NCBI GenBank assembly: GCA_046753765.1
Contig: JBHHUN010000003.1
Location: 21,001-85,000 of the forward strand
Direction of reading: 5' to 3'
DNA: 64,000 nucleotides
Source of the DNA: Candidatus Dojkabacteria bacterium
GTDB lineage: Bacteria > Patescibacteriota > Dojkabacteria > B142 > OLB20
Below the pieces are notes generated by a model, which was not told where the DNA came from, made no database searches, and saw nothing but the letters and a program-made list of their open reading frames with translations. Made by a program: the position numbers and the translations under genes. This document shows, one piece after another, positions 7,042 through 25,622 of the stretch (positions are counted from its first letter, which is position 1; every line of letters begins with the position of its first letter).

Positions 7042-8367
7042 ATGGAGCAGAACACAGGGAGTTACAAGCGCAGAGTGAAAATTAACCTTGATAAGCAGAT
7101 GGCAAAGAAAAGGCCAGCCGGAAGAAAGACTACTCTTACCGCTTTCAAGCCATCTTTTAAGCAGATATTCCTGTCTGTTTTAGTATTCGCTGCGGCGTTC
7201 GGCGTCATATACGCTGTTGATACCTCTGGAATATTGAAACCAAAGCTGGATATAGCTACCGGATATTACCTGGTGAGCACGAACGCCGAGGTAACGCCAC
7301 CGAGTATAGAGATCCCCATACCACCTCAGGTTAGGGATAAAGAGAACCCTATAAACGGAGTGTTAATGACGAAAAAGGATTACAGCAACCTTCTTAAAAG
7401 GACTCCTGTAGCCGTAACTATAAATAATACTTCAATTGCAAGGCCTCAGCATGGGCTAACACAGGCAGATACCGTTCTTGAAGTACTCGCAGAGGGAGGC
7501 ATTACACGGTACGTCGCAATGTTTTATCAGAACTTCGATATCTCAAAGATCGGACCTGTGAGGTCCCTCAGATATTACATGATAATGTGGGCTTCGGGGT
7601 ACGCTGATGCGATAATTTTGCATGAGGGACAGGCAGGATATGATAATGCACCCTGGGAAACCTATCGAGAGAAGGCTGATGCAAGGGGTGCACTGTACAA
7701 ATTTGGAATAAAAAGTATGCAGTCAGCTGGTAGTAGGTATAGAGATTATGACAGGGCTGCTCAGGTCGGACTTGTCCACGCGCTTTATACTGATTTCAGT
7801 TTAATAAAGCCGGAGATTTCGAGATTAGGTTCAATTTTGGGATGGAAAATTGGATCAAAAAATTTGGAGCCATTAAAATTCAAATACGATGCCGAAACTG
7901 AGGAGAGAGGTGAATTTAAAGCAGTAACACTAGAATTTTTAGGACTGAGCACCGCTGACTACAGCTCAAGATTCGTTTATGATAAGAAAAGCAACACATA
8001 CAAAAGGTTTGTTGGAGGAGTAGCGGATATAGATCAACTCAACAATGAGCAGATTGCACCAAAAAATGTGGTTATTGAGTGGCACAACTATGGCGATGCA
8101 AATGATGGGCATGGAAGGATTATCATAGATATGCTTGGTGAAGATAAGGTCACGGTCTTGCGCGATGGTAAGGTGATTAACGGAACCTGGAAGAAAGAGT
8201 GCAGAACTTGCAGGACCAATTACTTTGACACAAAGGGTAACGAAATTGAGTTTGTAAGGGGGCAGATATGGGTAGCTAATGTTGTAAAGGTTGGTGATAG
8301 GGAGGTGAGCAATGTCTTCATAAACGATGGCTCTACTAAAAACAATGAACCTGCTAATAAAACTTAA
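7042..8367 (+). CDS. DUF3048 (YerB-like) family secreted/membrane-anchored protein
   Basis: N-terminal TM helix, then the motif 'ARPQHGLTQADTVLEVLAEGGITRYVAMFY' characteristic of DUF3048/YerB-family proteins. Function unknown. Confidence 0.55.
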   Translation: MEQNTGSYKRRVKINLDKQMAKKRPAGRKTTLTAFKPSFKQIFLSVLVFAAAFGVIYAVDTSGILKPKLDIATGYYLVSTNAEVTPPSIEIPIPPQVRDKENPINGVLMTKKDYSNLLKRTPVAVTINNTSIARPQHGLTQADTVLEVLAEGGITRYVAMFYQNFDISKIGPVRSLRYYMIMWASGYADAIILHEGQAGYDNAPWETYREKADARGALYKFGIKSMQSAGSRYRDYDRAAQVGLVHALYTDFSLIKPEISRLGSILGWKIGSKNLEPLKFKYDAETEERGEFKAVTLEFLGLSTADYSSRFVYDKKSNTYKRFVGGVADIDQLNNEQIAPKNVVIEWHNYGDANDGHGRIIIDMLGEDKVTVLRDGKVINGTWKKECRTCRTNYFDTKGNEIEFVRGQIWVANVVKVGDREVSNVFINDGSTKNNEPANKT

Positions 8368-11763: not shown

Positions 11764-14700
11764 TTAAAGGTTGGCGATCCCCGAATTATTAAGATAGCTG
11801 CCCTCGTAACCTCTACCAGTTGCAATATTAACGTCTCCGTTAGCGATCTTGGCAAGTGTTCGAAGCTTACTTGCAAGTTTTGGGCCTACATATTTGTAGT
11901 AACTTACCTCGCCCGGCGACAGCGAAACTATCAAGACCTCTGAATCGAAATAGTAGTCCTTTTCACCGATTACGAGTATTAATTCACGTTCGTTTAGCTT
12001 CTCCATGAAGTCTGGGCCAAGATCGTTCAACACATTTAAAATAGAAGTTGTCTGTTGTCTGGTCCATATACTTTCGAATCCTATTAGTCGTACACCGTAG
12101 TGCGATAGCTCCAGTTGTTGATACTCAGTACTGGCCTCAGGGACGTCGTTTGATATCGGAACGTTATTCATTGCTTGCTGAGAGCTAGTGCTCATCGCCC
12201 CAATAAGCATGATCAGCGACATCATAAACGGCACAACATTACTTACATTAATGCCCCTGAAAGCCATATTGGCCAGATTTAGGAAGGCTCCGGCGAGGTT
12301 GAACAGCATCATTGATGCGTTCATTAAGGCATTTATTGCTCCGTTGAGAGGGACATCAATCAGATAGTGCCCGAGGGCTTGTCCAAGGAGCTGTCCTAAG
12401 AAAGTTCCAAATCCCGTCCCGAGAGCGATGAAAAAAGGTGTTGCGAGGGCTCCTAGACCCCCCGTAATTGTCGTAGCTATTGCTGACGTACTGGCAGCTA
12501 TAGCTGTGCCTACGGCGCTACCGATAGCAATTCCAGCTACACCTCCTACTGCGGCACCAACGCCTGCACCAACCATTGCTCCGATACCGGTTCCAAGATT
12601 GAAAGCTGCACCCACAGCAAATCCTAATATGCTGCCAACTGTAAACCCAACTGTCGCCGGGTTGACTCTTGGGATAAGCCCACTTGCAAACCCTCTTAGT
12701 GTTTGCGCACTATAACGCCCGAAATTACCGAAGCTTTGAAACGCCTCCCCAAAGGTGAGTAGTCCTTCTGTACTTGCTGTAGGGATCCCCATTGCTCCAC
12801 CTGTGAGTGCATACGCTGATCTACTTAGTGCATTTGTTGTTTGTAAGTACCCCACCGCTCCAAGGTAGTTTCCGCCAACGGTGATAACATTGAGAAACCC
12901 CGTTCCCTGATAAAATGTGAAGCTGTCTCGAAGATATCTGTCGAGATCGCCGTCGTATTCATCCTTCAAGATCTGTGCCTGTTGGCCTATCCACGAACCA
13001 CCGATCATTCTGTTCATAAATCGTGTACCCGGGATCCGTGCAAGTTTGGCAAACATTGAACTATCCCCCCTAAGACTTTGTGCGACGCCCTTCCCTATTA
13101 ATGAGTCCCAGATGAACCTGGCGCCCGCACCGGCCGCAAACCCCGCACCGGCCGCAAGCAGTGGGTTGACGCCGGTAATAAGCCCGACTGTGGCTGCAAT
13201 GGATGCTACAGTTAAGCCGGTATTGATTGATCTAAAGAGCCTTTGAGAATTAGAATAGATATTTCGCATACCTTTCACCTGATCCTGAAGCTCAGATGTG
13301 AGGTCTGCTTGTGCCTTCCATGTTCCATTTGGCATTCTCCATTTTCTCAGGTTGTATGATTGCATATTTTGTATTGCAGCCAAGGCTGTACCTGTTGCGC
13401 CACCAAGTACCATTGCCGTTGGGTTCAATCCAAATATAGCAGCTGTACCAACACTGGTCAGTAGCCCTTTGGGGAGTGCACGTGCTGTTGATGAGGTTAC
13501 CCTGTATCCCGTTCGAAGCACCCTACCGGTTGCTGTAGCCACTCTGACTGTACCTCTTGCCACTGCCTTAACACCTCTTCCTGTGGCTCTTGCCCCTCTG
13601 ACGCTCAATCGTGTCAATCTGGCATCTCTGACCGATCTATATAAATTACGGCCACCCTCCTGCACCCTTTGAGTTGCCCGTCCTGCTATTTCAGCTGCTT
13701 GCTCACTTTTTTGGGATGCGTACTCTGCGGTTCTGGAGTTAACGACCCGCTGACCTACCCTTGAGCTGACAAATCTGGCTCTAGCTGCCCTACTGATAGC
13801 TGTGCCCGTCTTACCTATTGCTTTGACAACCCCCTTGGCTGTATCGAATAGCCCCTTGAAGAACATGCGAAGCACCAAACCTCGAGCAGCCTTTTCATTC
13901 TCTTCCTTCTTCTTTTTTTTATATGCCCTGCGTGTCAAGATTATCCGACCCTTTAGCTGTCGACGATAGAACTTCTCGGACTGCTTTTGCAGCCTCTTTG
14001 ATCTGTCCTTAACTCTTTCGGGTACAAATCCTGAAACATTCGCACCTGTCCATCGCGCGACATCTTTCCCTTTATTCACCACCGGTCTTCCAAAAAACAC
14101 TGCCGGCTTTGCAACAAAGTTTCTTGCTGTAAATTTTGCTGCCCCAATAGCGAAATTCTTGGTTCCCTCTTTTACATTCTCTTTAAACTTCTTTCTTTTT
14201 TGTCGAAACCTTTCACGCAGTCCAGGTTTTTTTGCATCATAACGGAAGTCTTCCATCTGGAAAATGTTGTACCACTTACCTCTTAAGAATGCGTCTTCCA
14301 TCTGCCGGGTTCTTTTGTTCATTGACTCGCTCCAATGGGGGTTGTCCCAGGCATAAAACTGTGCTTTCGTTTCTTGACCAAGCCATCGTGCTCCACGTTT
14401 CAACTTGTCTGCACGAGATTCTTCCCTCTGAACTTCTACTTCAGGGGCAGGAACAGGTTCAGAAGGAGGGGGCAATGTAGCTTCTGTCTCTCCTGTGGGT
14501 TTTGGTGTAAATTCCCCAGCAGGTTGTTCGTCTTTGGGTAATCCAGAAGGTAGCTGTGCGGCTTCTGTGGGCGTGACAGAGCCCATTTGAATTTCTGACT
14601 TTACCCCGTTGAGATACTGAATGATAGCTGTTGCTGCTGGATGCTTGCTAATATCGGGGTGATATTTCTTTGCGAGGTCTCTGTAGGAGGCCTGGATATC

Positions 14701-15000
14701 TTCTCCCCGGCCTGCAATGTCGTAGAGTCCGTCTATCTCCGCTTTGACCTCAGGAGGAACCCCGGTTGCATCCGGTCGTGGTTGCTCAACAGCTTCTGCC
14801 TTTTGTTCGGGAATGGCAATTGCCGATGAGGCTCTCACCTGTTGCAGTACTTTATCAGCTTCCCGTAGTATTTCCTCGACAGACTTCCTTTGTTCCCGGT
14901 TTTCACGCAGGAACTTCTCTACAGCTTCAATTAGAGCAGCAGTATCACTCCCCAGCTCTGAGATCCTATCTTGTATTCGTTGCATTGGTTCAACTGCCAT
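11764..15000 (-). CDS. Giant (1078 aa) J-domain-containing membrane protein: N-terminal coiled coil, DnaJ-type J domain, Arg/Lys-rich region, Gly/Ala-rich glycine-zipper hydrophobic region and a C-terminal globular domain. Last gene of the six-gene operon
   Basis: Residues ~88-135, 'LYDIAGRGEDIQASYRDLAKKYHPDISKHPAATAIIQYLNGV', match the J-domain consensus, including the invariant HPD (nt 14653-14661, minus strand). Residues ~180-470 are very Arg/Lys-rich. Residues ~500-880 contain many GxxxG/AxxxA hydrophobic stretches (e.g. VGAGVGAAVGGVAGIAIGSAVGTAIAA). No signal peptide. Confidence 0.65.
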   Translation of the reverse strand: MAVEPMQRIQDRISELGSDTAALIEAVEKFLRENREQRKSVEEILREADKVLQQVRASSAIAIPEQKAEAVEQPRPDATGVPPEVKAEIDGLYDIAGRGEDIQASYRDLAKKYHPDISKHPAATAIIQYLNGVKSEIQMGSVTPTEAAQLPSGLPKDEQPAGEFTPKPTGETEATLPPPSEPVPAPEVEVQREESRADKLKRGARWLGQETKAQFYAWDNPHWSESMNKRTRQMEDAFLRGKWYNIFQMEDFRYDAKKPGLRERFRQKRKKFKENVKEGTKNFAIGAAKFTARNFVAKPAVFFGRPVVNKGKDVARWTGANVSGFVPERVKDRSKRLQKQSEKFYRRQLKGRIILTRRAYKKKKKEENEKAARGLVLRMFFKGLFDTAKGVVKAIGKTGTAISRAARARFVSSRVGQRVVNSRTAEYASQKSEQAAEIAGRATQRVQEGGRNLYRSVRDARLTRLSVRGARATGRGVKAVARGTVRVATATGRVLRTGYRVTSSTARALPKGLLTSVGTAAIFGLNPTAMVLGGATGTALAAIQNMQSYNLRKWRMPNGTWKAQADLTSELQDQVKGMRNIYSNSQRLFRSINTGLTVASIAATVGLITGVNPLLAAGAGFAAGAGARFIWDSLIGKGVAQSLRGDSSMFAKLARIPGTRFMNRMIGGSWIGQQAQILKDEYDGDLDRYLRDSFTFYQGTGFLNVITVGGNYLGAVGYLQTTNALSRSAYALTGGAMGIPTASTEGLLTFGEAFQSFGNFGRYSAQTLRGFASGLIPRVNPATVGFTVGSILGFAVGAAFNLGTGIGAMVGAGVGAAVGGVAGIAIGSAVGTAIAASTSAIATTITGGLGALATPFFIALGTGFGTFLGQLLGQALGHYLIDVPLNGAINALMNASMMLFNLAGAFLNLANMAFRGINVSNVVPFMMSLIMLIGAMSTSSQQAMNNVPISNDVPEASTEYQQLELSHYGVRLIGFESIWTRQQTTSILNVLNDLGPDFMEKLNERELILVIGEKDYYFDSEVLIVSLSPGEVSYYKYVGPKLASKLRTLAKIANGDVNIATGRGYEGSYLNNSGIANL

Positions 15001-15001
15001 A

Positions 15002-16051
15002 TTACCCCAACATTGATAGATGATTTTGAATAGTCCGTATATCCCTCCTGATGTTTTCTAATTCCTGGGCGTATTTCTTGATCTGGTCCAGCTGGTTTTG
15101 CATATCTGTTGCCTTGGCCTGCAACTGGGTGGTAGCTTGAACAAGCGTTGTCTGTGATGCTGGATCATTCTGCCCGGTAAGAGACTGTGCCTGTTGTTCC
15201 AGGTTTTCTACCTCTACCTTTAACTTGTCAATATAGTCGCTGGTTTGATCTATATGTTTTGCCAAAGCATCAAACTCCTTCATCCGCCTTTTCAACCTTT
15301 TTCTTAGTCCCTTCCTTTGCTTATCTAAGAAATACCTCTGATTTAGATTTTTGAAGAGTGCGTTGATTTGCTCTGTGTCAATCTCGACGTCCTTTTGATG
15401 TTCCTGTTGCTGTGCCTTTAGAGTGCCATAAATCCCCGAAAGAATAGTCAGTGCTTCCCTCTGGGCAGGAGTCATTGGTACGAGCGTATTGGGTTGGTTG
15501 GTGTATGGGCGTACTGCTAATGCTAACAGCCTTTCATACTCCTCAATGTTTGAGATACTGGTGTATTGTTGTAGTTTTGCCTCTTTTTGATAAAGACCGG
15601 GTACGAGAGAGGGCTGTTTCAATGTCAAGGTTCCTATCTGTTGCTTCAACATCGCCTCATGTTTTTTGACCTCCTCTTTAAACTCGTCTTTAACAAATGC
15701 CCAGTCCTTAAGAAGACTCATTATCTGCGAAGCAGGGGTAACTGCACTCTTAAGCGCCATGTGGTCTATCCACTGGCTCAGCGTCATCACTGCAATTTGT
15801 AGATCGCGGGGTTGTACTCCACCAGCGAAGGCCAAAGTACCAAAATCAAATTCTTGTGTTGCTGGTGCATTTCGTGCGGATAGTCCTTTCATGACATGAT
15901 CCATTGTTCGCTCGTACAAACTAACTTTCTTTGCATAATCTGGTATACCCTCTGTTTTCCTCTCCCCGCTTACCGATTGCCATGTACTTTTAAGATCAAT
16001 CAGGTCGTTAAGCGAAACTGCAGTTATGGCACCTTTGTTGTTTGTTTGCAT
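15002..16051 (-). CDS. Hypothetical coiled-coil protein (operon gene 5)
   Basis: 349 aa, Gln/Glu/Lys-rich with heptad-like segments (…QLQAKATDMQNQLDQIKKYAQELENIRRDIRTIQN…). No TM helix. Start abuts the downstream gene (15002/15000) and its 3' end overlaps the upstream gene's start at 16051. Confidence 0.55.
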   Translation of the reverse strand: MQTNNKGAITAVSLNDLIDLKSTWQSVSGERKTEGIPDYAKKVSLYERTMDHVMKGLSARNAPATQEFDFGTLAFAGGVQPRDLQIAVMTLSQWIDHMALKSAVTPASQIMSLLKDWAFVKDEFKEEVKKHEAMLKQQIGTLTLKQPSLVPGLYQKEAKLQQYTSISNIEEYERLLALAVRPYTNQPNTLVPMTPAQREALTILSGIYGTLKAQQQEHQKDVEIDTEQINALFKNLNQRYFLDKQRKGLRKRLKRRMKEFDALAKHIDQTSDYIDKLKVEVENLEQQAQSLTGQNDPASQTTLVQATTQLQAKATDMQNQLDQIKKYAQELENIRRDIRTIQNHLSMLG

Positions 16052-17232
16052 CAGTTCTCTTCTGCCAGATAGTCATTTAAAGTAAATTTGGGGTTTTCAA
16101 GTCCGTTTGTAACAGCGTTGAATATTTCGTATTTTGCCTCATGCGTGAAATCTACGTTATATGTTTCGAATGGCTCGGGGAGTACGTTCCCGTCGTCCAT
16201 TACAAGATACAAGTCAATCAGAAAGTTGAACTTTCGCTCATCTTTGTCAAACTGTTCAGGCGGTCTGAACCGGAGCTGATAGAGATTGACGGGAGTAAAC
16301 AGTCCGGAGTTGATATAGTAAAGCAGTAGCTCTTTGTAGTCTTCAAGAAGAACTTTACGTGTTTCGGGGTACAGTGACTTCATTGCTCGCAGTCCATCTG
16401 TAATAACTTTAACAACTTGATCTTCAAGATCTTCGAGCTGTGGCGGGAATTTACTTTCAGTGTTATTAGTTATCTTTCTGTAATACGCATTGAGGTTTGC
16501 CTTAGCCTGTCCTGGACTCATACCTCTGGCAAGATAGGAGTATAGTCTTGGTGTGAAGTACATATAGCAGGTTTCGGCTACTGTTTCGTTTAGAAGACGC
16601 AATTCGTCCACGTAGAGTAATGGTACCATTCCGTACACAGTGATATCATCCAGGTCATCGATCATCTGATCGCGAATACCAGTAAACTCGGTAAGTGCCG
16701 AGAGGTATGATTTCATTATATTTTCCCTTTTCTCGCGCTCGCTAGTTGCTTGAAAATCAAGGACCCCAAAATCGTTGATGACAAATGCATCTGGAATGGC
16801 AAAAGTTATTGTGGATGGTAGAAATTTTTGATCCTTCGGCACGTCCATTGACTTTATGATACTGCGTTCAAGTTTTGTTGGTACACGTACCAGCTGGTAC
16901 TCAGCAAATTCAAGCCTTGCTTCAAGATACCGCATTATGTAGAGATCATGCATTGCTTCAAGGAAGATTTCTGGTGTTTTTTTGCCTGTTTTGTCCAGTT
17001 TAAGCTCATAAAGACTAACGAGCTTTTCGATTATCTCTATGTATCTGAGCATCAGCCGCTCTGTCTGGGGAGACGTTTGCTCTATTTTAATATCTAGCGA
17101 CTCTTCTTTTGAAAACAGGAAGATGTAATCGAGGATCTCGGGTCCCAGAACAGAGATAAGCTGCTTTTCTATATCACTGAGATCAGTAACAAGTGTCGAG
17201 ATAGAATTGGTGTTTTGTGTTTCTGTAGCCAT
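16051..17232 (-). CDS. Hypothetical cytoplasmic protein (operon gene 4)
   Basis: 393 aa with no TM helix, no Walker motifs and no recognisable family. It lies 9 nt downstream of the membrane-protein gene. Confidence 0.5.
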   Translation of the reverse strand: MATETQNTNSISTLVTDLSDIEKQLISVLGPEILDYIFLFSKEESLDIKIEQTSPQTERLMLRYIEIIEKLVSLYELKLDKTGKKTPEIFLEAMHDLYIMRYLEARLEFAEYQLVRVPTKLERSIIKSMDVPKDQKFLPSTITFAIPDAFVINDFGVLDFQATSEREKRENIMKSYLSALTEFTGIRDQMIDDLDDITVYGMVPLLYVDELRLLNETVAETCYMYFTPRLYSYLARGMSPGQAKANLNAYYRKITNNTESKFPPQLEDLEDQVVKVITDGLRAMKSLYPETRKVLLEDYKELLLYYINSGLFTPVNLYQLRFRPPEQFDKDERKFNFLIDLYLVMDDGNVLPEPFETYNVDFTHEAKYEIFNAVTNGLENPKFTLNDYLAEEN

Positions 17233-17241
17233 CTTTCATCT

Positions 17242-18771
17242 CTATCCCTGATTTGATGTCCCCGGCGCATAACTAGTAAGTCTTTTTTTGGTCTCATTCA
17301 ACAACCCGCCAAGAGCCGTTGTTCTCTGACTAACTACCTGGAAGAAGATATTACCAGTTGGTACACCCATATTGTTTTTAATTAGATCCGGAATGCTTGG
17401 TGAGAACAGGAAGACCGAGTAAACAACAATAATTTTATAGATGCCACCACCGAACTGTGATGCTTCGCTACCGTACCCGAGCAGTGGGGGTGCCCATTCA
17501 ATTGCACCAGCATCCCGGAATGCACCGGTCAAACCGCTGCTGTTACCCACAATTATGAGAAATAGAAATACACCATATAGAACGATAAACACAAGACTGG
17601 CAGCCAGAAGTGTTTTGAAGTAATTGCCCACTATAGTACCGGTTCTACCAGGTATGGCTGCAGTCAGGAATATAAACGGCGAGAATATGGGCATTGTGGT
17701 TAGAATTATGTAGTTATTAAGCAGTGCGAGAAACAGCTTAAAAGCTGCGCCCAGGGCAACAAGTCCAAGCAGTAGCTTAAGTAGATCTCCGGCGAGGCCA
17801 CCTCCCAAGGCTGAGAAAAGCCCCGTGAGAAATGTCTCCTCCACACCGCCTATGAGAGGAAACCACCCGATCTCACATGTGTCAAGTTCGCCCTCAGTAG
17901 GAATAAGTGGATCAGGGTCACAGATGTGGATTGCAGACGAGCTCCAGATATTCATAAAGCCAAGCTGATAATCGTCCGGCTGAAGTTCATTAATCTTGGG
18001 TCCGGAGTAGCCAGGGGCCCCCTGAACGCCACCTTGAAAGATATCGTAGCCCGGAGCTCCAGGGGCTGTGACCATTACACTTTGGACAAAATTAGTGCCG
18101 ATCGTAACAAGATCTACAAATAAAGCAGATATCGGATAGCTTAGGGTTACCAATAGCAGGGCGATCAACACCGACGGTAGTGAGTTAGCGACATTCACTA
18201 TAGTTTGCCCACCAAGATTTTGTCGGAACAGCACAAGGAAAGCTATCACGATGAGAATGACTATGAAGAAACCATAGGCGATATTTCTTGTCCACTGCCA
18301 GAAACCAAGGATCGGGCGAAGAAGTTCAAAACCTAACCCAGGGAAGTACGTTGATGGATTCGAGTCATTTTGGGCGAAAACAGTAATAGATTCGTAGCCA
18401 AGAATTTGGTTGTACTCGTTCTGTGCCCAGACAATCATACTGGCTGGCGGGTTATCATACATACCATCGCTCAGGGCTGCTATCTGTAGGACAGCCCCTT
18501 TTTGAGACACATCGTCTTTACCTTCAGCTGAGCCTGTTGCCGTCAGATGATTCCATCCACCTGCAAACCATGCAGAAAGACTGCCAAGGTCGTTCCTCCC
18601 TTGTGGAGCAACGTAAGTATGAATGGCCGATCGAGGTTCAGCCACAGCTTGAGTCATCGGCACATTAGACAGCAGAAAAAATGCAATCAACCCTACGACC
18701 ATTAGGGTCTTAAATACCGATCTCTGCTTCCAGCCCTTCTTAATCAGGCTCTTTACCGTGGGACCCTTCAT
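17242..18771 (-). CDS. Polytopic membrane protein with VirB6/TrbL-like topology: signal peptide, ~125-aa extracytoplasmic domain, ~6 TM helices (operon gene 3)
   Basis: Signal peptide (…LLSNVPMTQAVA|EP), a hydrophilic N-domain, then hydrophobic helices (IAYGFFIVILIVIAFLVLF; LPSVLIALLLVTLSYPISALFVDLV; LLKLLLGLVALGAAFKLFLALL; IILTTMPIFSPFIFLTAAIP; LLAASLVFIVLYGVFLFLIIVG; IYKIIVVYSVFLFS) with a Cys-containing loop. The call rests on topology only, not sequence similarity. Confidence 0.55.
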   Translation of the reverse strand: MKGPTVKSLIKKGWKQRSVFKTLMVVGLIAFFLLSNVPMTQAVAEPRSAIHTYVAPQGRNDLGSLSAWFAGGWNHLTATGSAEGKDDVSQKGAVLQIAALSDGMYDNPPASMIVWAQNEYNQILGYESITVFAQNDSNPSTYFPGLGFELLRPILGFWQWTRNIAYGFFIVILIVIAFLVLFRQNLGGQTIVNVANSLPSVLIALLLVTLSYPISALFVDLVTIGTNFVQSVMVTAPGAPGYDIFQGGVQGAPGYSGPKINELQPDDYQLGFMNIWSSSAIHICDPDPLIPTEGELDTCEIGWFPLIGGVEETFLTGLFSALGGGLAGDLLKLLLGLVALGAAFKLFLALLNNYIILTTMPIFSPFIFLTAAIPGRTGTIVGNYFKTLLAASLVFIVLYGVFLFLIIVGNSSGLTGAFRDAGAIEWAPPLLGYGSEASQFGGGIYKIIVVYSVFLFSPSIPDLIKNNMGVPTGNIFFQVVSQRTTALGGLLNETKKRLTSYAPGTSNQG

Positions 18772-18851
18772 CTATGCATTCTAATGTAACGAATAAACGG
18801 TAGTTTCTTCCACCAGTATAGGAAGTTATGGAAATGATTTCAACAAGATAA

Positions 18852-19328
18852 TCACTCGGGGAGTTTTTTTTCGCGTTTGAATTTGAACTTCCTCAGTTCG
18901 GGGTACTGTTTTTTCAGTTGTCCTATCATACGGTAGTCATCGACAAACCAGTCACTTATCTGGATGAGTGCATCGTCATCCATTCTGGCAAAGAAATCGG
19001 CTGCCATTTCGTTTTCAAACTTCATTAATTTTTTTTCAATAATGTCGTTTAACTTCGGGTGTTTCCCCCTGATTTTAAACATCATTTTATAGAACTTCTC
19101 GAGATTCTTTGCCTGTTCCTTTTGGTTCAGTGTTGTGTCGCTGAGCTTATCAAGCTCCTCATCGTATTCCTTTAACTTGTTCTCAGAAAGGAACAAGATG
19201 GTTTGCTGTATTTCAACCTGCATCTTCATTTCAAGGTACTCATGTCTCATCTGCATAATGACGTAGTCATCATATCCAAACTGATCCTGAACTAGTTTTG
19301 CAAATCTCTCGTCAAACAAAAAAAACAT
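18852..19328 (-). CDS. Small hypothetical cytoplasmic protein (operon gene 2)
   Basis: 158 aa, charged and helical, no TM helix. It lies 16 nt downstream of the giant gene. Confidence 0.5.
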   Translation of the reverse strand: MFFLFDERFAKLVQDQFGYDDYVIMQMRHEYLEMKMQVEIQQTILFLSENKLKEYDEELDKLSDTTLNQKEQAKNLEKFYKMMFKIRGKHPKLNDIIEKKLMKFENEMAADFFARMDDDALIQISDWFVDDYRMIGQLKKQYPELRKFKFKREKKLPE

Positions 19329-19344
19329 GTATATTCAATAACAA

Positions 19345-22300
19345 CTAAGGCAGAGCAATAAACTGTTTCCCAAGCTCCCAGAAGTCTTTAGAGGTTCTCT
19401 GAGTGAGATTTTCGCTGTATTTAACGACATCGTTGTATGCTGGCATAGTTCCCTCCCACTGGGCATCAATTGCCCCCATATGGGTGAACAACATAGCTAT
19501 ATTGTCGCTTGATAGAGCCTGTCCGGCCCTTGCCTGCTCAAACACACTTCGCATGCCCTGTAGTTTACCAAGTGTCTCGTCGGCAATCTTGGACCTTGCC
19601 CCCCAGCCATCTCTGGATCGGTCAAGAAAGCGGGAAAACATCCAATCCCAGGCAAAGATTCCGACAAGCGGTCCACCGAGACTTGGAAGCATGCTTGCAA
19701 ACTGTAAACCCAGAAATGGCACGCTAACGTGAGCGAACCCAAGAATCACGGAGGTGTAGATCGTCCACCTCAGGATCTTATTCACTTTTGCAAGCCAACC
19801 CCAAAGCTTCTTTTTGTACTTGGCAACATTTGCAAATTCGTCCATCTGCTGCAACCGCTCCTGATACCTAAAAAATAGATCAAGGGCAAGCTTTTTATTT
19901 GCTATCTCGCCATCTATATTGCCGTCTATTGTGCCCTTCTCCTTAGTTTTTATCAGGTTGCCGTCATCATCTCTTGCGAGTTGTCCAGTATCCGTTAACT
20001 CAAATCCAAATAGATGTGCAAGTTCTGCGGCCGAGACTCCAGGTACTGGAGGGTAGTCTATGAAGAATCCTTGAGGTGTTTTCTTTTTGATTGATGCGGT
20101 TTTTGAGTATTCACCCTGAAAGTACCTTATCATTCTGCCACGGGGGCCGAACGTTTCGCGTCTAATGACTACAACTGACTTACCTTTGTCGTCTGTTACA
20201 GTCGTGTAACCGTCTCGCTCAAGAGATGCCAGAGCTGCTCTATCGAGTCGTGGCAGCTTTATGTCTTGATTTTTACTGTCTTTTGGGTACGGTGAGAGAT
20301 TATCTAACCACTCCTGTGCGGGGACCGGGCTTCCTTGATCGTCTCGAAAAGGTTTTCCCTCATCATCCCTCCGGTAGGCTATATCGAATCCGTAAACACC
20401 GACCTCCATAATCCTCTTTGCTTTAGCTTTGAACATATGTCGTATGAAGTCTTTGACAATCTCGGTGTCCACGTACAATGCTTCATTCCCATGCCCAATT
20501 CGTACATCAATATTGGGCCAGGTCCCCTTCCCGTCTGGGCTTCCCTCCGGGACTGTTGATTCTGGCCCATGGCCATATTCCAGTCTTTTCATCCTGTCGA
20601 GTAGTTCGTAAAGCGTGAAGTGGTCTCCAGGAATGTTGTTATCAGAAAACGTTGACTTGTCTTCACGCATCATTGCATCAGCTATCAGAGCGAATGCATC
20701 AGAGATGCTCTTTTTCTCATCGGCAATATCGTATTTTGTTGCGTCGCGTTCTTTTGGATCTATCATTTCGATAATATCTCCCTTCAGACTGTCAGACATC
20801 TGACCTTTCCGAAGCCTGGATTCTCCATCAAAGGCATCACTTACACCTTCTCCTAAGAGGGTGTCACCTGTCAGACTTGTTGTAATACTCGCTGGAAACC
20901 CTCCCAATTGTGCAAGTACAGGGTTTTGTCGGTGTTCATCAATCTCTTTAAACCCCTGCCAACCAGCAACAAATCTGCCCGACGTAACGTCTTGTTCAAA
21001 CCCACCGATAGCTTCGAGAATTATCAAAGTTTCACTTGAGCTTCTGCCGGACTGTTGAAGTTCGTAAGCTATTGATTGTGAGTGTTGTTCGACTGTGTCT
21101 CGTGCGTGCGGTGAGGTTAGTTTAGCTCTAACATCTTGATGCGGTGCAATAAACAGTCGTTTTCGTAGGTCTTTCAAGATTGGAAGTGTTCCCAACCCTC
21201 CGGGTAGACCTTTGCCTATTGGATCCGCTCCTAATTGCTCTGTAAAGAATATTCCTCCGACTTTGCTCCCCAGACGTTTTCCTAGTACTTTTTTAAATGC
21301 TCCCATTCCATATGCACCAAAAGCTTCATTCATTTTGTAAGGAGTTATGCCCAAAATATCCAGAGGGTTCCAAAACCCCTTAAGGAAGAACAGGGCGCCC
21401 CCCCTCGTGTCTTCGTGAGGGATAGACTTTGTTCCGATCATTGAGTGCCAAAGATTCACCTTGTTTCTCTGGAGTGTCTTTCCCGGATTGAGGTCGCTAC
21501 GCAGGTATTTCACCATGTTTGCTGAGTAGTGTCCCTGGTACCTGGTCATTATGTTGCCATTTTTATCTATTAGGATTTTCAGGTGCTGCGACTGGTCACC
21601 AATGTTGTCTTCGCCTATCATTTCGCGAATCTGCTCGTTGAAACCCTCTTCCAAAGATCGCCTTCGTGTTTCGTAATCGTTCTTTGACACATCTCCGTCT
21701 TCAAATTGGCTATCTAGGTTCTTGAGTGCTGTGTTGAAGTCTTCGCGTATGCTAAAAAGATCTTCTGCAGATCCTGAGTAGGTTGTCTCTCCGCTTTGTG
21801 GGTCAATAGAATCTACGGTGGGCATATTGATACCTTCGAACAGCTCAGGGTATCTTCTTTTTAGTCTCGTTAAGAATCCAGGCAGGTGATCGACGGTTCT
21901 GGTGCCGTTTTGTTCCAACAGAATGGCCATTGAAACTCTCGCTTTTTTGTATTTTGTAAACAACTCCAGGTATGTTTCCTCATCTTCTTCACCGAGTTCA
22001 ACGCGAGTTTTTAGTTCGAGGAGTTTGTCATGTATGCCATTTATGGCTTTGACGGTCATTCCGGCTACTATTTCATGCTCTGTAATTACACCTTCCGCGC
22101 CTAGTTTCTCGGGGTTGATTCCTATCTCCGCCATAGTAAGGCGTTCAGTAATTGGTCTCATATAAAGTGCTGAGCCAATCTCTTCAAGGTGTGGTGGTTC
22201 GGAGAGAGCCTCGTGCAGACGCTTAGCTCTTTCGGCTCGTCTGCTGCCCCCCCTATCGGTGATATGCTCTGAAAACAGCCGAACATCCTGTTCTAGCCTC

Positions 22301-24522
22301 TGTGTGTGGTCGGTGTCGGCCATATAGTCGGGTGTTACCAAATACCTCCTCGCTTCAGCAAGGAAATCCTGAAGCTGGGGGTGAGATTTCATCTGCTCAG
22401 AAGCCACCCTGTTTAGCTCGTCAAGTGCCTTCAGTTTCGCTGCCTTTTCTGCATCGGTTTTTGCAGTCTCAGGAATATTAAGTTCAGACCTGTGAATTGA
22501 TCTGAAATAGTCCAGGACCAACCTGCGACTTAAGATTTTGGCTCTTGCTTCAGCCTGAGCGGCTTCCAATGCCTGCTTCACCTGATGCCCAAGCTCGTGC
22601 ATGGTAGAGCTGTCGCTAGCTATTATCAGTCTGTCTACGTTACCAATGACTGCACCCGCGGGAACTGCTTCTCCGGGGCCAAACTCTTTGCCGTAAATCA
22701 CTGCGAACAGTTGTTGAATCTGGCTCTGTTCCATAATGAGCGCTGGTCCAGCTGCTGTGATCTCTACTCTGACACTGGGATTGTCTGCTAACTCCGAGAT
22801 AACTCCGGTAATCTGTTCTTTGTTTATTTCTACAGGGTTACCGTCTTCGTCAGTTGCTCCAGCAAGTTCACTGAACATCTGAGTCAGTGCAAATTCCTTT
22901 TGAGCCTGAAGCCCCCTCTGCTCAGCTTCGTATCTTTCGGTTGGACTTAGACTATCGAGGTGTTCGTTTCCCTCCTTCACGAGCGATGCGATTGTCTGAT
23001 CCCGATTTTCGCCAAAAACACCCAGGTAGTAGTGCCGCATGTGGTCAGCCATTTTGTTGTTCCTTTCGACAAGTGTGTCAACCAGGGTGTCTATCTCTAG
23101 ATGTGCTCTTTGCAGATACGGCAGTTTTTCTCCATCACTTCTCAACTGGGCCATCTCTTTTTCGTTGAAATATTGTCCGTATGCCTTTAGGATCCTTTCT
23201 CTGATTGCGTTTCTCGTCGAATCTCCATGACTGTACTCACCACCTTTGGTGGGACTGACACCTTCAATTATCCTTGTGCCAATCTCAACTGCGTTGACTG
23301 GGTCAAGGAACATGTCGGCAACAAACTCATTCATTACTATCTCATTTGCGGCAGCTATCTTACCTGACGCAGATACCGGTCTGCCTCCAGCCAGAGCCTC
23401 AGTGGCTGCTCCGGTTAGCTCTTCTACAGCTCTTTGTCTGACCTTTGCGAGCTCACGGATAAGACTTTTCTGGTCCATCGCCTCTATGTTACTCCCCCCC
23501 GGGCTGAGCACCTGCTCCACTTCGTCTTTGATATCTGCCTCTTTTTCCGCCAAGGTTCTAGCTTCTGCTGGTTTTTCTCTTGCTTCAGGCATTTTTGCTC
23601 GGACGGTTTCGCCTACAGTTCCCACTTCCACTTTCTCGGGTGGCCCAGGTCGCCCGGTGGTATCGAGCAGATCTTCAGGTTGCGCTTCTGAAACTATTTC
23701 CAGCTCTTCGGTGGCTACCTCTGTTTCTGTTGCTTCTACGGCGGTTGCCTTAGCCGGCGGGTCACCAATAAGTTCATGTATCTCTGCTTCAGTGAACCCC
23801 TTGCTAAGTAAGTACTGCTTTCTTTTCGAATGCTCGGCTCTAGTCATGAAAACCAGTCTGAGCCTGGCCCAACGCTTAACTAAGGCACTCTTTATTTGGC
23901 TGAAAAAATTGATCTTCTTCTTTTTGCGAACCTCGTTTTCATCCTGCTCCAACCTGTCTCTTACTTTGTCAGCCTCTGCAAGTGCATATTTTGCCTGTTC
24001 GTCTACTTCGGGATCACTAATCTCTGATTGGACTTCCGCAAGTTCCTTTGGATCAGGCTCTTCTTTTGCTTCGGGTAGCGGAGTTTGCTCTGTTTCAACT
24101 GTGATATTCGCGAGCTCGTGTCTTGCTACTTCACGCAGCACTTCCTCTTCATGTGCCTGAAGCTCACCGCTTTCTCTTAATTGCCTGAGGATTAATTCGA
24201 CCTCAAGTGGCGACTTTGCACTTCTGATCTTTGTTTTTATTTCGGCTGAGATTTTTGGAAGAACAAATGCGGCTGCACTAAGTAGTCTTTTATCGACCTG
24301 CGCTGGGTTTATCCACCTAAGCTGAGGTGATTCATGAACGCTGCTACTTGCAGCAGGAGTTAGTGGTTCATGTCCATTCCCTGAGATATCCGGAGCCTCT
24401 GCAGCCGCCTCGACTGTTGCCGCATCAGCATCTTTTTGAGCTTTTGGCAAGCGAGGTTCCTCCCCGGTTCCAGAAGGATGGGTTCTTTCTTTTGGTGGTG
24501 TTGGTGCAAGTCCTATTGCCAT
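19345..24522 (-). CDS. Giant (1725 aa) hypothetical protein with acidic/coiled-coil N-terminal region, an HELGH motif and a C-terminal TM hairpin. First gene of the six-gene operon
   Basis: Uninterrupted 5.2-kb ORF with no signal peptide. Charged coiled-coil-like N-terminal 300 aa. HExxH motif 'MHELGHQ' at nt 22585-22599 (aa 642-646). Two hydrophobic helices near the C-terminus (WTIYTSVILGFAHVSVPFLGLQFASML...PLVGIFAWDWMF). No recognisable family. Confidence 0.6.
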   Translation of the reverse strand: MAIGLAPTPPKERTHPSGTGEEPRLPKAQKDADAATVEAAAEAPDISGNGHEPLTPAASSSVHESPQLRWINPAQVDKRLLSAAAFVLPKISAEIKTKIRSAKSPLEVELILRQLRESGELQAHEEEVLREVARHELANITVETEQTPLPEAKEEPDPKELAEVQSEISDPEVDEQAKYALAEADKVRDRLEQDENEVRKKKKINFFSQIKSALVKRWARLRLVFMTRAEHSKRKQYLLSKGFTEAEIHELIGDPPAKATAVEATETEVATEELEIVSEAQPEDLLDTTGRPGPPEKVEVGTVGETVRAKMPEAREKPAEARTLAEKEADIKDEVEQVLSPGGSNIEAMDQKSLIRELAKVRQRAVEELTGAATEALAGGRPVSASGKIAAANEIVMNEFVADMFLDPVNAVEIGTRIIEGVSPTKGGEYSHGDSTRNAIRERILKAYGQYFNEKEMAQLRSDGEKLPYLQRAHLEIDTLVDTLVERNNKMADHMRHYYLGVFGENRDQTIASLVKEGNEHLDSLSPTERYEAEQRGLQAQKEFALTQMFSELAGATDEDGNPVEINKEQITGVISELADNPSVRVEITAAGPALIMEQSQIQQLFAVIYGKEFGPGEAVPAGAVIGNVDRLIIASDSSTMHELGHQVKQALEAAQAEARAKILSRRLVLDYFRSIHRSELNIPETAKTDAEKAAKLKALDELNRVASEQMKSHPQLQDFLAEARRYLVTPDYMADTDHTQRLEQDVRLFSEHITDRGGSRRAERAKRLHEALSEPPHLEEIGSALYMRPITERLTMAEIGINPEKLGAEGVITEHEIVAGMTVKAINGIHDKLLELKTRVELGEEDEETYLELFTKYKKARVSMAILLEQNGTRTVDHLPGFLTRLKRRYPELFEGINMPTVDSIDPQSGETTYSGSAEDLFSIREDFNTALKNLDSQFEDGDVSKNDYETRRRSLEEGFNEQIREMIGEDNIGDQSQHLKILIDKNGNIMTRYQGHYSANMVKYLRSDLNPGKTLQRNKVNLWHSMIGTKSIPHEDTRGGALFFLKGFWNPLDILGITPYKMNEAFGAYGMGAFKKVLGKRLGSKVGGIFFTEQLGADPIGKGLPGGLGTLPILKDLRKRLFIAPHQDVRAKLTSPHARDTVEQHSQSIAYELQQSGRSSSETLIILEAIGGFEQDVTSGRFVAGWQGFKEIDEHRQNPVLAQLGGFPASITTSLTGDTLLGEGVSDAFDGESRLRKGQMSDSLKGDIIEMIDPKERDATKYDIADEKKSISDAFALIADAMMREDKSTFSDNNIPGDHFTLYELLDRMKRLEYGHGPESTVPEGSPDGKGTWPNIDVRIGHGNEALYVDTEIVKDFIRHMFKAKAKRIMEVGVYGFDIAYRRDDEGKPFRDDQGSPVPAQEWLDNLSPYPKDSKNQDIKLPRLDRAALASLERDGYTTVTDDKGKSVVVIRRETFGPRGRMIRYFQGEYSKTASIKKKTPQGFFIDYPPVPGVSAAELAHLFGFELTDTGQLARDDDGNLIKTKEKGTIDGNIDGEIANKKLALDLFFRYQERLQQMDEFANVAKYKKKLWGWLAKVNKILRWTIYTSVILGFAHVSVPFLGLQFASMLPSLGGPLVGIFAWDWMFSRFLDRSRDGWGARSKIADETLGKLQGMRSVFEQARAGQALSSDNIAMLFTHMGAIDAQWEGTMPAYNDVVKYSENLTQRTSKDFWELGKQFIALP

Positions 24523-24668: not shown

Positions 24669-25622
24669 ATGGCAATACCGAATGTATCACCTAATCCACA
24701 GAATCCCGACCCTGCAGCGGGCGGAGCGTCACCAGCTCCAGGGGGGACACCTGCACCATCAGGTCCGGTTACACCTGTAACACCATTGAATAACGCTCCG
24801 CAGATTAGTGATCCGTCTGCAGTTCCCGGGGCAACACCAGTTTCAGCAGACCCTGGGTCGGTCGACCCAGTAGATCCAGCTGCAACACCGGTGATGCCGC
24901 CAACCGATATGTCTGCGCCGTCTGTAGATCCGGCAACTCCAGTGGATACTTCAGTTTCAGGGTTACCGCCCGTAACAGAAGGAACAACACCAGCAACACT
25001 TGAACCCACGGCAACACCTACTGCAGCTGACAAATCCACGGCAACACCTGCAGCTGACACTGCAGTGTCTGACGTAACCGCAGGGATTGATGCAGCACAA
25101 AGTGCAGCAACCGGCACAGCCTCACCAGATAGTACTCTAGCGGGAATAGTTGAAACACCTGGCCCAGCAATAGGCGGAGAACCAAGGGCTACTGGTGACA
25201 CCCCGCCACCCCCAAGCCAGGGACAGATGCAGAGTGATCCTGACCCAGTAGCAGGTAGTAGCTCGCCCGCACAGCCTTCAACAGCAGAGTTGCAGCCGAT
25301 AGCTCCTTCACCTACGACTGAGGCGCCACCCGTTCAAGCAGCGGATACTTCATCCGCATTGCCACCGACTCCTATGGCCGTACCGCCAGCAGCACCCACG
25401 ACGGCTAACGCAATGGCAACCCCGGGACTCGCTCCTGATGCAGGTGCTGGCACCCTTCCCGGTGCACTTCCACCACTCGGAGAAGAGGCTCCAGGAGCTG
25501 AAAAAAAAAGTAAGGGTGGCAGAAGAGGGTTGATTTTAATCATTGCTCTGGTCATCATTATTGGTATTATCCTCTTTCTGGTAGGTGTGATGTTGGCATC
25601 TGGCTTACAACTTCCGTTTTAA
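24669..25622 (+). CDS. Pro/Ala/Thr-rich low-complexity protein with a single C-terminal TM anchor (tail-anchored topology)
   Basis: 317 aa. Almost entirely P/A/T/G/S/D low complexity. Ends with 'KKSKGGRRGLILIIALVIIIGIILFLVGVMLASGLQLPF' (basic patch, hydrophobic helix, short tail). No N-terminal signal peptide. The antisense ORF 24659-25201 is judged a low-complexity artefact. Confidence 0.45.
   Translation: MAIPNVSPNPQNPDPAAGGASPAPGGTPAPSGPVTPVTPLNNAPQISDPSAVPGATPVSADPGSVDPVDPAATPVMPPTDMSAPSVDPATPVDTSVSGLPPVTEGTTPATLEPTATPTAADKSTATPAADTAVSDVTAGIDAAQSAATGTASPDSTLAGIVETPGPAIGGEPRATGDTPPPPSQGQMQSDPDPVAGSSSPAQPSTAELQPIAPSPTTEAPPVQAADTSSALPPTPMAVPPAAPTTANAMATPGLAPDAGAGTLPGALPPLGEEAPGAEKKSKGGRRGLILIIALVIIIGIILFLVGVMLASGLQLPF

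Follow-up and report, generated by a model that had tools for sequence, protein, structure and literature searches.

Gluzincins (MEROPS clan MA(E)), such as thermolysin (M4), the botulinum neurotoxin light chain (M27) and anthrax lethal factor (M34), have a helix that starts with an HExxH motif, with strands directly before it, and a conserved Glu as third ligand on a later helix, roughly 20–70 aa away in the known families; in the M27 family, this ligand is the second Glu of an ‘EE’ pair. Zincin (MPTase) domains are also present, as Iyer and co-workers are said to have described in 2017, in the giant polyvalent proteins of conjugative elements and phages. Monotopic or short-loop membrane hairpins, as in stomatin/SPFH, caveolin and chlamydial Inc proteins, and SLATT-type 2-TM modules have in common a hydrophobic stretch of ~35–43 aa, broken by a conserved Pro, and long flanking helices, and secreted effectors that target membranes, chlamydial Inc proteins for instance, can contain hydrophobic hairpins of ~40 aa. 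In monoderm type IV secretion systems (T4SS) of the MPF-FATA type, the VirB1/PrgK/TcpG-type hydrolases combine an N-terminal anchor with extracellular SLT, CHAP or M23 domains. PMC12102498 presents large membrane-anchored hydrolases as standard components of monoderm T4SS, describes T4SS as widespread across the classes of Patescibacteria and reports that epibiotic growth of the related Saccharimonadia requires T4SS genes; Dojkabacteria genomes among the entries listed from its Table S1 are given as VirB4-positive.

The protein considered here (1725 aa, hereafter ‘the giant’) is encoded by a member of the Dojkabacteria, which are uncultivated Patescibacteria with tiny genomes. As in gluzincins, its HExxH motif stands at the predicted start of a helix, with predicted strands directly before it and a conserved Glu on a later predicted helix as candidate third ligand. 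It differs from them in the absence of detectable sequence or fold similarity, in the spacer between HExxH and EE, which is variable (~70–135 aa), and in that the candidate domain forms part of a much larger, membrane-anchored protein of 1700 aa. With polyvalent proteins, it shares a very large multidomain build, a zincin motif and a putative genetic link to type IV secretion genes; unlike them, it has a single chromosomal gene that is inherited vertically at one fixed place, and a C-terminal membrane hairpin, while no DNA-related domains were found in it and neither the giant nor its family matched the polyvalent-protein MPTase domain in Pfam. VirB1/PrgK/TcpG-type hydrolases are likewise large, membrane-anchored, equipped with a hydrolase-type motif and encoded beside a VirB6-like gene, whereas the giant has a C-terminal hairpin, a bulk predicted to be cytoplasmic and none of the SLT, CHAP or M23 domains. 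Its hairpin has the length, the Pro and the flanking helices of the hairpin anchors and SLATT proteins without being related to them in sequence, and the conserved WDWxxSRFLNRSRDGWG motif has no known counterpart.

Retaining a 5-kb gene in the same place, as all genomes examined do, is a considerable investment for a tiny genome, and this gene stands beside one for a secretion-channel-like protein and four or five further unannotated genes. If the HExxH...EE centre is a working protease, the giant and its relatives would be a new family of zincins, unusual in its split active site and equipped with a membrane hairpin, and the cluster would be a concrete candidate for an envelope or host-interaction apparatus of Dojkabacteria; if the centre is non-catalytic, the giant stays an ordinary lineage-specific hypothetical protein.

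A narrow gene family at a conserved locus

The gene (NCBI locus ACE5DX_01105, annotated ‘hypothetical protein’) is, as an earlier sequence-only reading had noted, the largest in the window (the whole stretch of 64,000 nt analysed), the next ORF coding for 1078 aa. It is confirmed as real; intact ORFs of the family, 1618–1778 aa long, occur in six genomes, and the called ATG start is supported by a conserved N-terminus (MAIGLAPTP versus MAGLAHTP in OLB20 in the homologue alignment). In two assemblies the gene is split (P0004 and P0006), the split in OLB20 being a simple frameshift with homology that runs on in the other frame. The mass of the protein is ~190 kDa.

The same reading had called the protein an orphan, a description that must be given up: it is a member of a small, narrow and unnamed family, so far found in Dojkabacteria only, with at least nine sequences recovered by an exhaustive HMMER search and context look-ups, each of which comes from a Dojkabacteria (WS6) genome or from an unlabelled contig of a metagenome. 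Since a word-index homology search, run with the giant alone and with the family alignment, returned only the giant itself, the exhaustive HMMER search was needed to detect relatives, five of which were found among 1.84 billion representative proteins; further full-length members were recovered through gene-context look-ups. Identity is 15–20% between subgroups and 15–35% among homologues overall, and 41 of the 1339 columns scored over seven sequences are invariant, including 12 in the N-terminal 1000 aa. The companion statement that no recognisable family runs along the protein stands: no family match above threshold was obtained in NCBIfam, PHROGs and PADLOC, Pfam yielded only sub-threshold noise for the whole giant and seven segments, and PDB sequence searches gave no match. 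Matches of the giant, its segments or family members to RecX_HTH3, Pex14_N, GvpG, AP205 coat and DUF2066 were rejected as such noise. Profile searches against the PDB returned nothing, whether the profiles were built from the giant (N-domain, HExxH core and C-terminal half) or from two of its neighbours, and comparison with the described peptidase families in Pfam, NCBIfam and the PDB (sequences and family profiles, E up to 10) nothing relevant.

The giant gene is the first of six minus-strand genes (Table 1) that are tightly packed, with gaps of 16, 80, 9 and 1 nt and one 1-nt overlap. The order is the same in all eight other loci examined, two of which are cut off by the contig end at the last gene, and the position is fixed in all genomes, between Obg/CobA and He_PIG/SBP/DUF3048 genes. 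Because synteny between these related genomes extends across the whole neighbourhood and takes in its housekeeping flanks, co-location alone is no proof of a functional unit. The fixed flanked locus and the lack of matches on plasmids led to rejection of a mobile-element origin, and a PADLOC search to rejection of a defence-system origin. The cluster showed neither internal repeats nor paralogy, and the window no tRNA or Rfam element. An internal transcription boundary is possible after gene 2, where the 80-nt gap holds promoter-like and terminator-like sites of a kind no commoner than in shuffled sequence.

Table 1. Features of the giant gene and its cluster (positions in the window; gene 1 is the giant)
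Feature	Position (nt)	Strand	Basis or remark
Giant coding sequence, 1725 aa	19345..24522	-	ORF list, translation, NCBI annotation
N-terminal region, aa 1–383, charged, Ala/Glu/Lys/Pro-rich, variable length	23374..24522	-	Composition, alignment
Conserved basic amphipathic helix, aa ~205–227, INFFSQIKSALVKRWARLRLVF, then GFT..E motif	23842..23910	-	Alignments; hydropathy
Candidate zincin-like core, aa 578–668, with conserved TAAGPAxI	22519..22791	-	Alignment A12; low-confidence AlphaFold secondary structure
HELGH, aa 642–646 (H642, E643, H646)	22585..22599	-	Position; conservation in alignments
E780-E781 in PPHLEEIGS, candidate third metal ligand	22180..22185	-	Invariant 9/9; start of predicted helix
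Gly/aromatic-rich segment, aa ~1035–1110, EDTRGGALFFLKGFWNPLDILGITPYKMNEAFGAY...LGADPIGKGLPGGLG	21193..21420	-	Conservation, alignment
Mixed alpha/beta domain, aa ~1134–1374	20401..21123	-	AlphaFold pLDDT 60–90
Basic amphipathic stretch KYKKKLWGWLAKVNKILRW, aa 1568–1586	19765..19821	-	Sequence, homologue flanks
Hydrophobic hairpin, aa 1587–1629, R-W on one side, W-D-W on the other	19636..19764	-	Hydropathy, alignments
Conserved helical tail, aa 1630–1725, SRFLNRSRDGWGARNGIAEE ... MWEDLMPSYDKVVKY	19348..19635	-	Alignment A3
Gene 2, 158-aa helical protein	18852..19328	-	Starts 16 nt after the giant gene
Gene 3, 509-aa polytopic membrane protein, VirB6/TrbL-like by genomic context	17242..18771	-	
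Gene 4, 393-aa acidic soluble protein, pI ~4.5	16051..17232	-	
Gene 5, 349-aa protein	15002..16051	-	Sub-threshold coiled-coil protein matches only
Gene 6, 1078-aa very basic (pI ~10) membrane protein, Gly-rich transmembrane segments	11764..15000	-	

Orthologues of the gene 2 product measure 140–158 aa and are acidic in most genomes (pI 4.4–4.6), and the gene 4 product shows 44–51% identity between genomes. Matches of the gene 5 product to WXG100, Rad50, SMC and tape-measure proteins were discarded as coiled-coil noise. A J-domain in the gene 6 product (22.2 bits versus a Pfam threshold of 27.8) was rejected since the HPD is not conserved, KKYHPD being absent from both aligned orthologues.

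According to hydropathy, the product of gene 3 has an N-terminal transmembrane segment and at least six more, and one of its loops carries two invariant Cys; this agrees with the build of VirB6/TrbL proteins, which are polytopic, with an extracytoplasmic domain at the N-terminus and at least five transmembrane segments. It looks VirB6-like because a distant homologue from Daviesbacteria (E 3e-29 and 1e-41) is encoded in a type IV secretion cluster of Patescibacteria, together with PrgI, six T4SS_pilin genes, a VirB4-type ATPase and a TraC-like gene; the label thus draws on genomic context and on a database name, the OLB20 orthologue being called TrbL/VirB6 in UniRef. One family member matches the CD3337/EF1877 mobilome membrane-protein family weakly (E 0.007), none of 13 members matched Pfam TrbL at E up to 1, NCBIfam VirB6 models gave no match, and tblastn of the 509-aa protein against plasmids gave no match. 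A gene for such a VirB6-like polytopic membrane protein adjoins the giant gene in every genome examined, and the cluster may be linked to secretion; VirB4, pilin, PrgI and coupling protein were found neither in the cluster, nor in the window, nor in the eight homologous loci. Two loci from outside Dojkabacteria carry a VirB6-like gene (L007 and L013) and have no homologue of the other five cluster families, the giant (searched with family HMMs) included. In L013, the gene for the distant homologue of the 509-aa protein precedes one for an 898-aa membrane protein that carries an M23-like motif at its C-terminus, an arrangement that parallels the pairing of the giant with its VirB6-like neighbour.

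The HExxH...EE site

An HExxH motif had been reported at nt 22585–22599, and HELGH is found exactly there. From the composition of the giant (38 His, 166 Glu), ~0.08 such motifs are expected by chance, so that the motif alone is weak evidence and its conservation is decisive. Among the eight homologues covering the motif, H642 is kept in seven and E643 and H646 in all, the sole departure being EEGLH in L009; the check proposed in the sequence-only reading, i.e. conservation of HExxH among homologues, therefore came out in its favour (HExxH in 7/8, Glu and second His in 8/8) at identities of 15–35%. Among the 1339 scored columns, H642, E643 and H646 rank 27, 42 and 5 in conservation, and H646 and H642 are the only well-conserved residues among the 38 His. 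Judged from these alignments, the motif is under constraint.

That reading had seen no obvious third ligand downstream, for which a candidate can now be named, namely the EE pair at aa 780–781, which is invariant in nine of nine sequences although subgroups share only 15–20% identity. E643, H646, E780 and E781 account for four of the 12 invariant columns of the N-terminal 1000 aa. AlphaFold was run twice on shallow alignments (4 and 6 sequences; mean pLDDT 53) and places EE where a predicted helix begins (model residues 395–405; pLDDT <50 at the motif). The predicted order in the core, also of low confidence, is strand-strand-helix-strand-strand, then a long helix starting at HExxH, and this secondary structure would, at that low confidence, fit a zincin. 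The structural comparison that had been proposed, done here with AlphaFold and Foldseek, gave only meaningless matches for this region (pLDDT <50 at HExxH) and no peptidase match. Zinc binding and peptidase activity are putative properties of the giant.

Membrane hairpin, other regions and topology

The layout given by the sequence-only reading, with a charged N-terminus, a central HExxH and a C-terminal hydrophobic hairpin, agrees with the present analysis, as do its placing of the hairpin ~150 aa from the C-terminus after a basic stretch and its claim that a signal peptide is absent. The stretch KYKKKLWGWLAKVNKILRW begins at aa 1568, 158 aa from the C-terminus, and Kyte–Doolittle hydropathy exceeds 1.4 only at aa ~1587–1612, in the sole hydrophobic stretch, which lies ~140 aa from the end. 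The hairpin is the only hydrophobic region in all homologues, where it has a core of 34–43 aa, a Pro 12–14 residues in, then a second polar/Pro break, and K/R on both flanks; a helical hairpin thus fits better than a single transmembrane helix. In most homologues, the basic flank before it has a net charge of +6 to +7. In the AlphaFold model, the chain turns at the conserved Pro, with a long helix on either side, and the helical tail that follows has a mean column identity of 68% (alignment A3).

Since no hydrophobic segment was detected at the N-terminus, the giant lacks a Sec-type signal peptide. An N-terminal transmembrane helix is likewise absent. The distance of 940 aa between the HExxH domain and the only hydrophobic segment downstream and the strongly positive N-flank of the latter would place the HExxH domain inside the cell; a cytoplasmic location is thus predicted from hydropathy and charge. 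In monoderm bacteria, proteins destined for export tend to lack Cys, and the giant has none in 1725 aa (window background 0.52%, P ~1e-4), its homologues having 0–1 per ~1700 aa, which could mean an exported rather than a resident cytoplasmic protein. Other Cys-free proteins of the window, e.g. Obg, are cytoplasmic.

Conservation is unevenly spread over the remaining regions. The first 383 aa are poorly conserved (mean conservation 0.2–0.6), with 29 D/E and 13 K/R in aa 101–200. The helix INFFSQIKSALVKRWARLRLVF within them is hydrophobic enough in L005 to score as a transmembrane segment; it also gives weak sub-threshold Pfam matches to RecX_HTH3 and Pex14_N. The most conserved span of 30 aa (aa 1051–1080) falls in the Gly/aromatic-rich segment, where conservation is 1.8–2.5 over aa 1051–1110 and no confident structure is predicted (AlphaFold pLDDT <40). 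Fair AlphaFold confidence is limited to aa ~1134–1374, a domain with the motifs EAIGG, DExRxN, LRKGQMSD, HFTxxELI and FKAKAK..E.GVYG and without fold match in the PDB or BFVD in structure searches. Otherwise, the Foldseek matches in the PDB were either membrane transporters or coiled-coil hairpins (p85 iSH2, PcsB), at E 0.04 or worse, and those in BFVD were uncharacterised viral proteins and, as a weak resemblance with non-significant E (0.07–0.4), SLATT/PspA-like helical hairpins.

Proposed role and alternatives

The explanation tentatively preferred here is that the giant may be a gluzincin-like metalloprotein, anchored to the membrane but with most of its length in the cytoplasm, that belongs to a lineage-specific envelope module. 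Its C-terminal helical hairpin would hold it on the cell membrane with nearly all of its mass on the cytoplasmic side. Zinc would be bound by H642, H646 and, as third ligand, E780 or E781, with E643 serving as general base; a spacer of variable length would connect both halves of this site. The giant would act, possibly in physical association, with the five co-located products, namely the VirB6-like polytopic channel protein, the basic Gly-rich membrane protein and three soluble helical or acidic proteins, and the six would make up a module of the envelope that is akin to the type IV secretion apparatus of Patescibacteria or has split off from it. As a metallopeptidase at the cytoplasmic face, it would process or gate a protein partner of this module.

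Alternatively, the giant could be a non-catalytic membrane-anchored scaffold or tether that organises the neighbouring membrane proteins, with HExxH...EE as a structural metal site, a partner-binding site or an enzyme relic devoid of peptidase activity. This is a possible, if somewhat unlikely, account: one family member has EEGLH, conservation peaks at the Gly-rich segment (aa 1051–1110) and the C-terminal hairpin module instead of the motif region, long helical and low-complexity regions are present, and no similarity to any peptidase family or fold was detected. Against it, HExxH and EE are among the very few invariant positions of a fast-evolving N-terminal half, the catalytic-base Glu is kept in 8/8, and the L009 substitute is a Glu, still able to bind metal. 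It is unlikely that the giant is instead a translocated effector, exported possibly by a type IV-like route involving the VirB6-like neighbour, with the acidic 158-aa protein as chaperone, a hairpin that enters the membrane of a host bacterium and a metalloprotease domain that acts there. The near exclusion of Cys from the family, the adjoining acidic helical protein, the adjacent VirB6-like gene, the rapidly evolving N-terminus and, by analogy, a hairpin resembling those of the chlamydial Inc effectors would be in keeping with such a role; however, a secretion ATPase was not found nearby, Cys depletion is common in charged helical proteins (the Cys-free Obg of the window is cytoplasmic), and the gene, which all genomes examined carry once and at an unchanging chromosomal position and whose product has a highly conserved C-terminal module, resembles a core structural gene more than one for an effector. 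A bolder combination, in which the six proteins form a lineage-specific envelope machine around a diverged VirB6-type channel and the cysteine-free 190-kDa protein is a new zinc-protease family delivered by its hairpin into the membrane of the host bacterium, with help from the acidic neighbour, as an effector by which an uncultivated episymbiont manipulates its host, must be regarded as improbable.

An extracytoplasmic role as a cell-wall metallopeptidase, i.e. a counterpart of VirB1/PrgK-type hydrolases that cuts own or host peptidoglycan, is very unlikely. It is suggested by the M23-like motif of the 898-aa protein after the VirB6-like homologue in L013 and by the standard presence of large membrane-anchored hydrolases in monoderm T4SS (PMC12102498), but the giant has neither signal peptide nor N-terminal transmembrane helix, its HExxH domain lies far before a hydrophobic segment with a strongly positive N-flank, and no lytic transglycosylase, CHAP, M23 or wall-binding domain was detected. 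Finally, the ~0.08 HExxH motifs expected by chance and the gene split in two assemblies could hint at a chance motif in a mis-called or decaying ORF, an idea that has hardly any probability left: ORFs are intact in six genomes, homology persists in the other frame after the OLB20 frameshift, and the conservation of HExxH among homologues effectively refutes it.

An unnamed family of giant proteins

The 1725-aa product is, as the sequence-only reading had it, the largest encoded in the window (Table), the next ORF specifying 1078 aa. Its assignment to no recognisable family also stands, with no match in Pfam, whether the protein was searched entire or as seven overlapping segments, none in NCBIfam, PHROGs or PADLOC, and none in a PDB sequence search. 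The term 'orphan', however, has to be abandoned. A word-index homology search matched the protein to itself alone, whereas exhaustive HMMER with aa 401-1600 against 1.84 billion cluster representatives retrieved five relatives (E 1e-15 to 1e-109), including KXK26497.1 from candidate division WS6 (= Dojkabacteria) bacterium OLB20. Context look-ups via a neighbouring gene added intact full-length members of 1675, 1618, 1778, 1646 and 1694 aa, one of them from a complete 1.17-Mb genome (CP129475.1), and one partial member. In OLB20, a frameshift about ten codons past HELGH (L001 ~7455-7490, JYNZ01000003.1) yields ORFs of 767 and 1025 aa; since homology carries on in the other frame, KXK26497.1 is a fragment. 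Two database relatives (P0004 and P0006), apparently from one 8.5-kb ENA contig, resemble a similar split. Identity is 26-35% inside the main group and only 15-20% to a subgroup of two loci (L009 and L010). The family is without a name and so far restricted to one candidate class; large lineage-specific hypothetical proteins are common in Patescibacteria.

Features of the giant gene, its product and its surroundings
Feature	Window position (nt)	Strand	Position in giant protein (aa)	Remark
Giant gene	19345-24522	-	1-1725	ATG start
HELGH	22585-22599	-	642-646	HExxH motif
Gly/aromatic segment			~1035-1110	highly conserved; unstructured in AlphaFold
Alpha/beta domain			~1134-1374	AlphaFold, fairly confident
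Basic stretch			from 1568	KYKKKLWGW...
Hydrophobic region			~1587-1612	only strongly hydrophobic one
509-aa polytopic membrane protein	17242-18771	-		best conserved cluster member, 45-55% identity
Gap, cluster genes 2/3	18772-18851			80 nt
1078-aa protein	11764-15000	-		last cluster gene
Antisense ORF, 304 aa	23246-24160	+		in low-complexity N-terminal coding region of giant gene
317-aa protein	24669-25622	+		divergent from giant gene

Candidate metal centre and predicted fold

The HExxH motif lies exactly where the earlier reading placed it. In a protein with 38 His and 166 Glu, about 0.08 such motifs are expected by chance, so that its occurrence is by itself little proof; what rules out a chance motif or artefact is conservation. 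The motif is kept in seven of the eight sequences covering the site, as HELGH (twice), HELSH, HEMLH, HEMGH (twice) and HERAH; in the remaining member (L009 4136-9472, 1778 aa) it is replaced by EEGLH. Non-conservation of the HExxH residues, which the earlier reading named as a refuting result, is thus not what the alignment shows. A seven-sequence alignment has 1339 scored columns, of which just 41 are invariant; the first 1000 residues hold only 12 of these, E643, H646, E780 and E781 among them. Out of 38 histidines, only H646 (8/8) and H642 (7/8) exceed two-thirds conservation among the sequences. The sequence-only reading saw no obvious downstream third ligand, but the E780-E781 pair is a candidate: located 134 aa past HExxH in the context P-x-x-E-E-x-G/A, it is invariant in 9/9 sequences and retained in the EEGLH variant. 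As far as sequence goes, the conservation pattern is that of a gluzincin, yet with a long and variable spacer; if the protein is a zincin, it would be a new, atypical one in a new architecture.

AlphaFold modelling of aa 384-1000 from a four-sequence alignment gave a mean pLDDT of 52.7, with values <50 around the motif. There the predicted order is strand, strand, helix, strand, strand and a long helix starting at HExxH; a later helix begins at E780-E781. This order is compatible with a zincin without establishing one. The structure search proposed in the earlier reading (Foldseek against PDB) gave no E-value below 0.2, and family profiles of the candidate core matched nothing in PDB or Pfam.

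Predicted membrane anchor, VirB6-like neighbour and alternative readings

In each homologue the sole hydrophobic region lies close to the C-terminus, where it is bordered by R-W and, at the opposite end, by W-D-W. Its length (34-43 aa), a Pro 12-14 residues in followed by a second break, and K/R on both flanks (N-flank +6 to +7 in most sequences) favour a hairpin with both ends cytoplasmic, in line with the earlier proposal, which had also recognised the preceding basic stretch. The hairpin and the next 100 residues rank among the protein's most conserved parts. In the AlphaFold model of aa 985-1725 (mean pLDDT 53.5), two very long helices meet in a turn at the conserved Pro of the hydrophobic stretch.

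Downstream of the giant gene, on its strand, lie genes for 158, 509, 393, 349 and 1078 aa, with gaps of 16, 80, 9 and 1 nt and one 1-nt overlap; none of the five has a Pfam family. This six-gene order is identical at 8/8 other loci examined (two contig-truncated at the last gene), and the flanking genes agree at all loci, with Obg and CobA at one end and He_PIG, SBP and DUF3048 genes at the opposite end. The locus is therefore chromosomal and vertically inherited, but the synteny extends into the flanks, so that co-location is no independent proof of a functional unit. The family profile of the 509-aa protein gathers 14 relatives, including one from Daviesbacteria (E 3e-29; 1e-41 with an HMM built for this analysis) whose gene belongs to a T4SS-like cluster (L007) with six T4SS_pilin genes, PrgI, a VirB4-type ATPase and a TraC-like gene. 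The OLB20 orthologue bears the UniRef name TrbL/VirB6, and one family member shows weak similarity to a mobilome family of membrane proteins. Pfam TrbL has no match in the family, no T4SS ATPase or pilin occurs near the Dojkabacteria cluster, and the other five cluster families have no relatives in the two T4SS loci bearing a VirB6-like gene (L007 and L013). Most Patescibacteria classes have a chromosomal T4SS of monoderm type, with VirB6 genes often far from virB4 or too diverged for detection, and the Dojkabacteria genomes in the visible part of Table S1 are VirB4-positive (PMC12102498).

The reading we tentatively prefer is that of a multidomain protein held at the membrane, its bulk cytoplasmic, which would carry a gluzincin-like metal centre and act together with a VirB6-like channel protein as well as further partners, membrane-bound and soluble, that are specific to the lineage. 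Its main rival, a non-catalytic scaffold, is less probable and draws on the EEGLH variant and on the lack of fold evidence of any kind. Less probable still is a translocated effector. Cysteine is nearly excluded: the 1725 residues include none, compared with a background of 0.52% for the window (P about 1e-4), and homologues of 1618-1778 aa (L004, L005, L009, L010 and L011) have 0-1; an acidic 140-158-aa neighbour adjoins the giant gene, and there is the VirB6 link, but all three are non-specific. An extracellular wall hydrolase is unlikely, the topology arguing against it.

Further observations on the locus

The 349-aa neighbour lacks Cys in 6/6 genomes and the 1078-aa protein has 0-2, while the VirB6-like protein has two invariant loop cysteines, in contrast to the Cys-poor giant family. 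Downstream of a further distant VirB6-like homologue, an 898-aa membrane protein (L013 2027-4723) has a helical, cytoplasmic N-terminal portion as well as transmembrane segments, and its Cys-rich C-terminus bears an M23-like motif (GSHIHLL...VDP); it may be a VirB1/PrgK analogue.

The 1078-aa protein has a pI of ~10 in all genomes; its N-terminal half is rich in K/R, and its transmembrane segments are Gly-zipper-like. A J-domain was rejected for it, the DnaJ-like HPD not being conserved: KKYHPD (aa 100-126) occurs in this genome's copy only, with a sub-threshold Pfam DnaJ score (22 bits). The 317-aa protein, rich in Pro, Thr and Ala, adjoins the giant gene at the same position in every genome and has a pI of 4.1 in 6/6 genomes checked; it looks tail-anchored, given a lone C-terminal transmembrane segment just after KKSKGGRRG. 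The antisense ORF is most likely a by-product of biased codon composition. The window's remaining genes are ordinary Patescibacteria housekeeping genes (Obg, CTP synthase, POR, ABC transporters), and tRNA and Rfam scans of the window returned no match. The region's best promoter-like match (10/12) and a terminator-like hairpin both lie between cluster genes 2 and 3, so that the six genes may form two transcription units; such sites show no enrichment over shuffled sequence.
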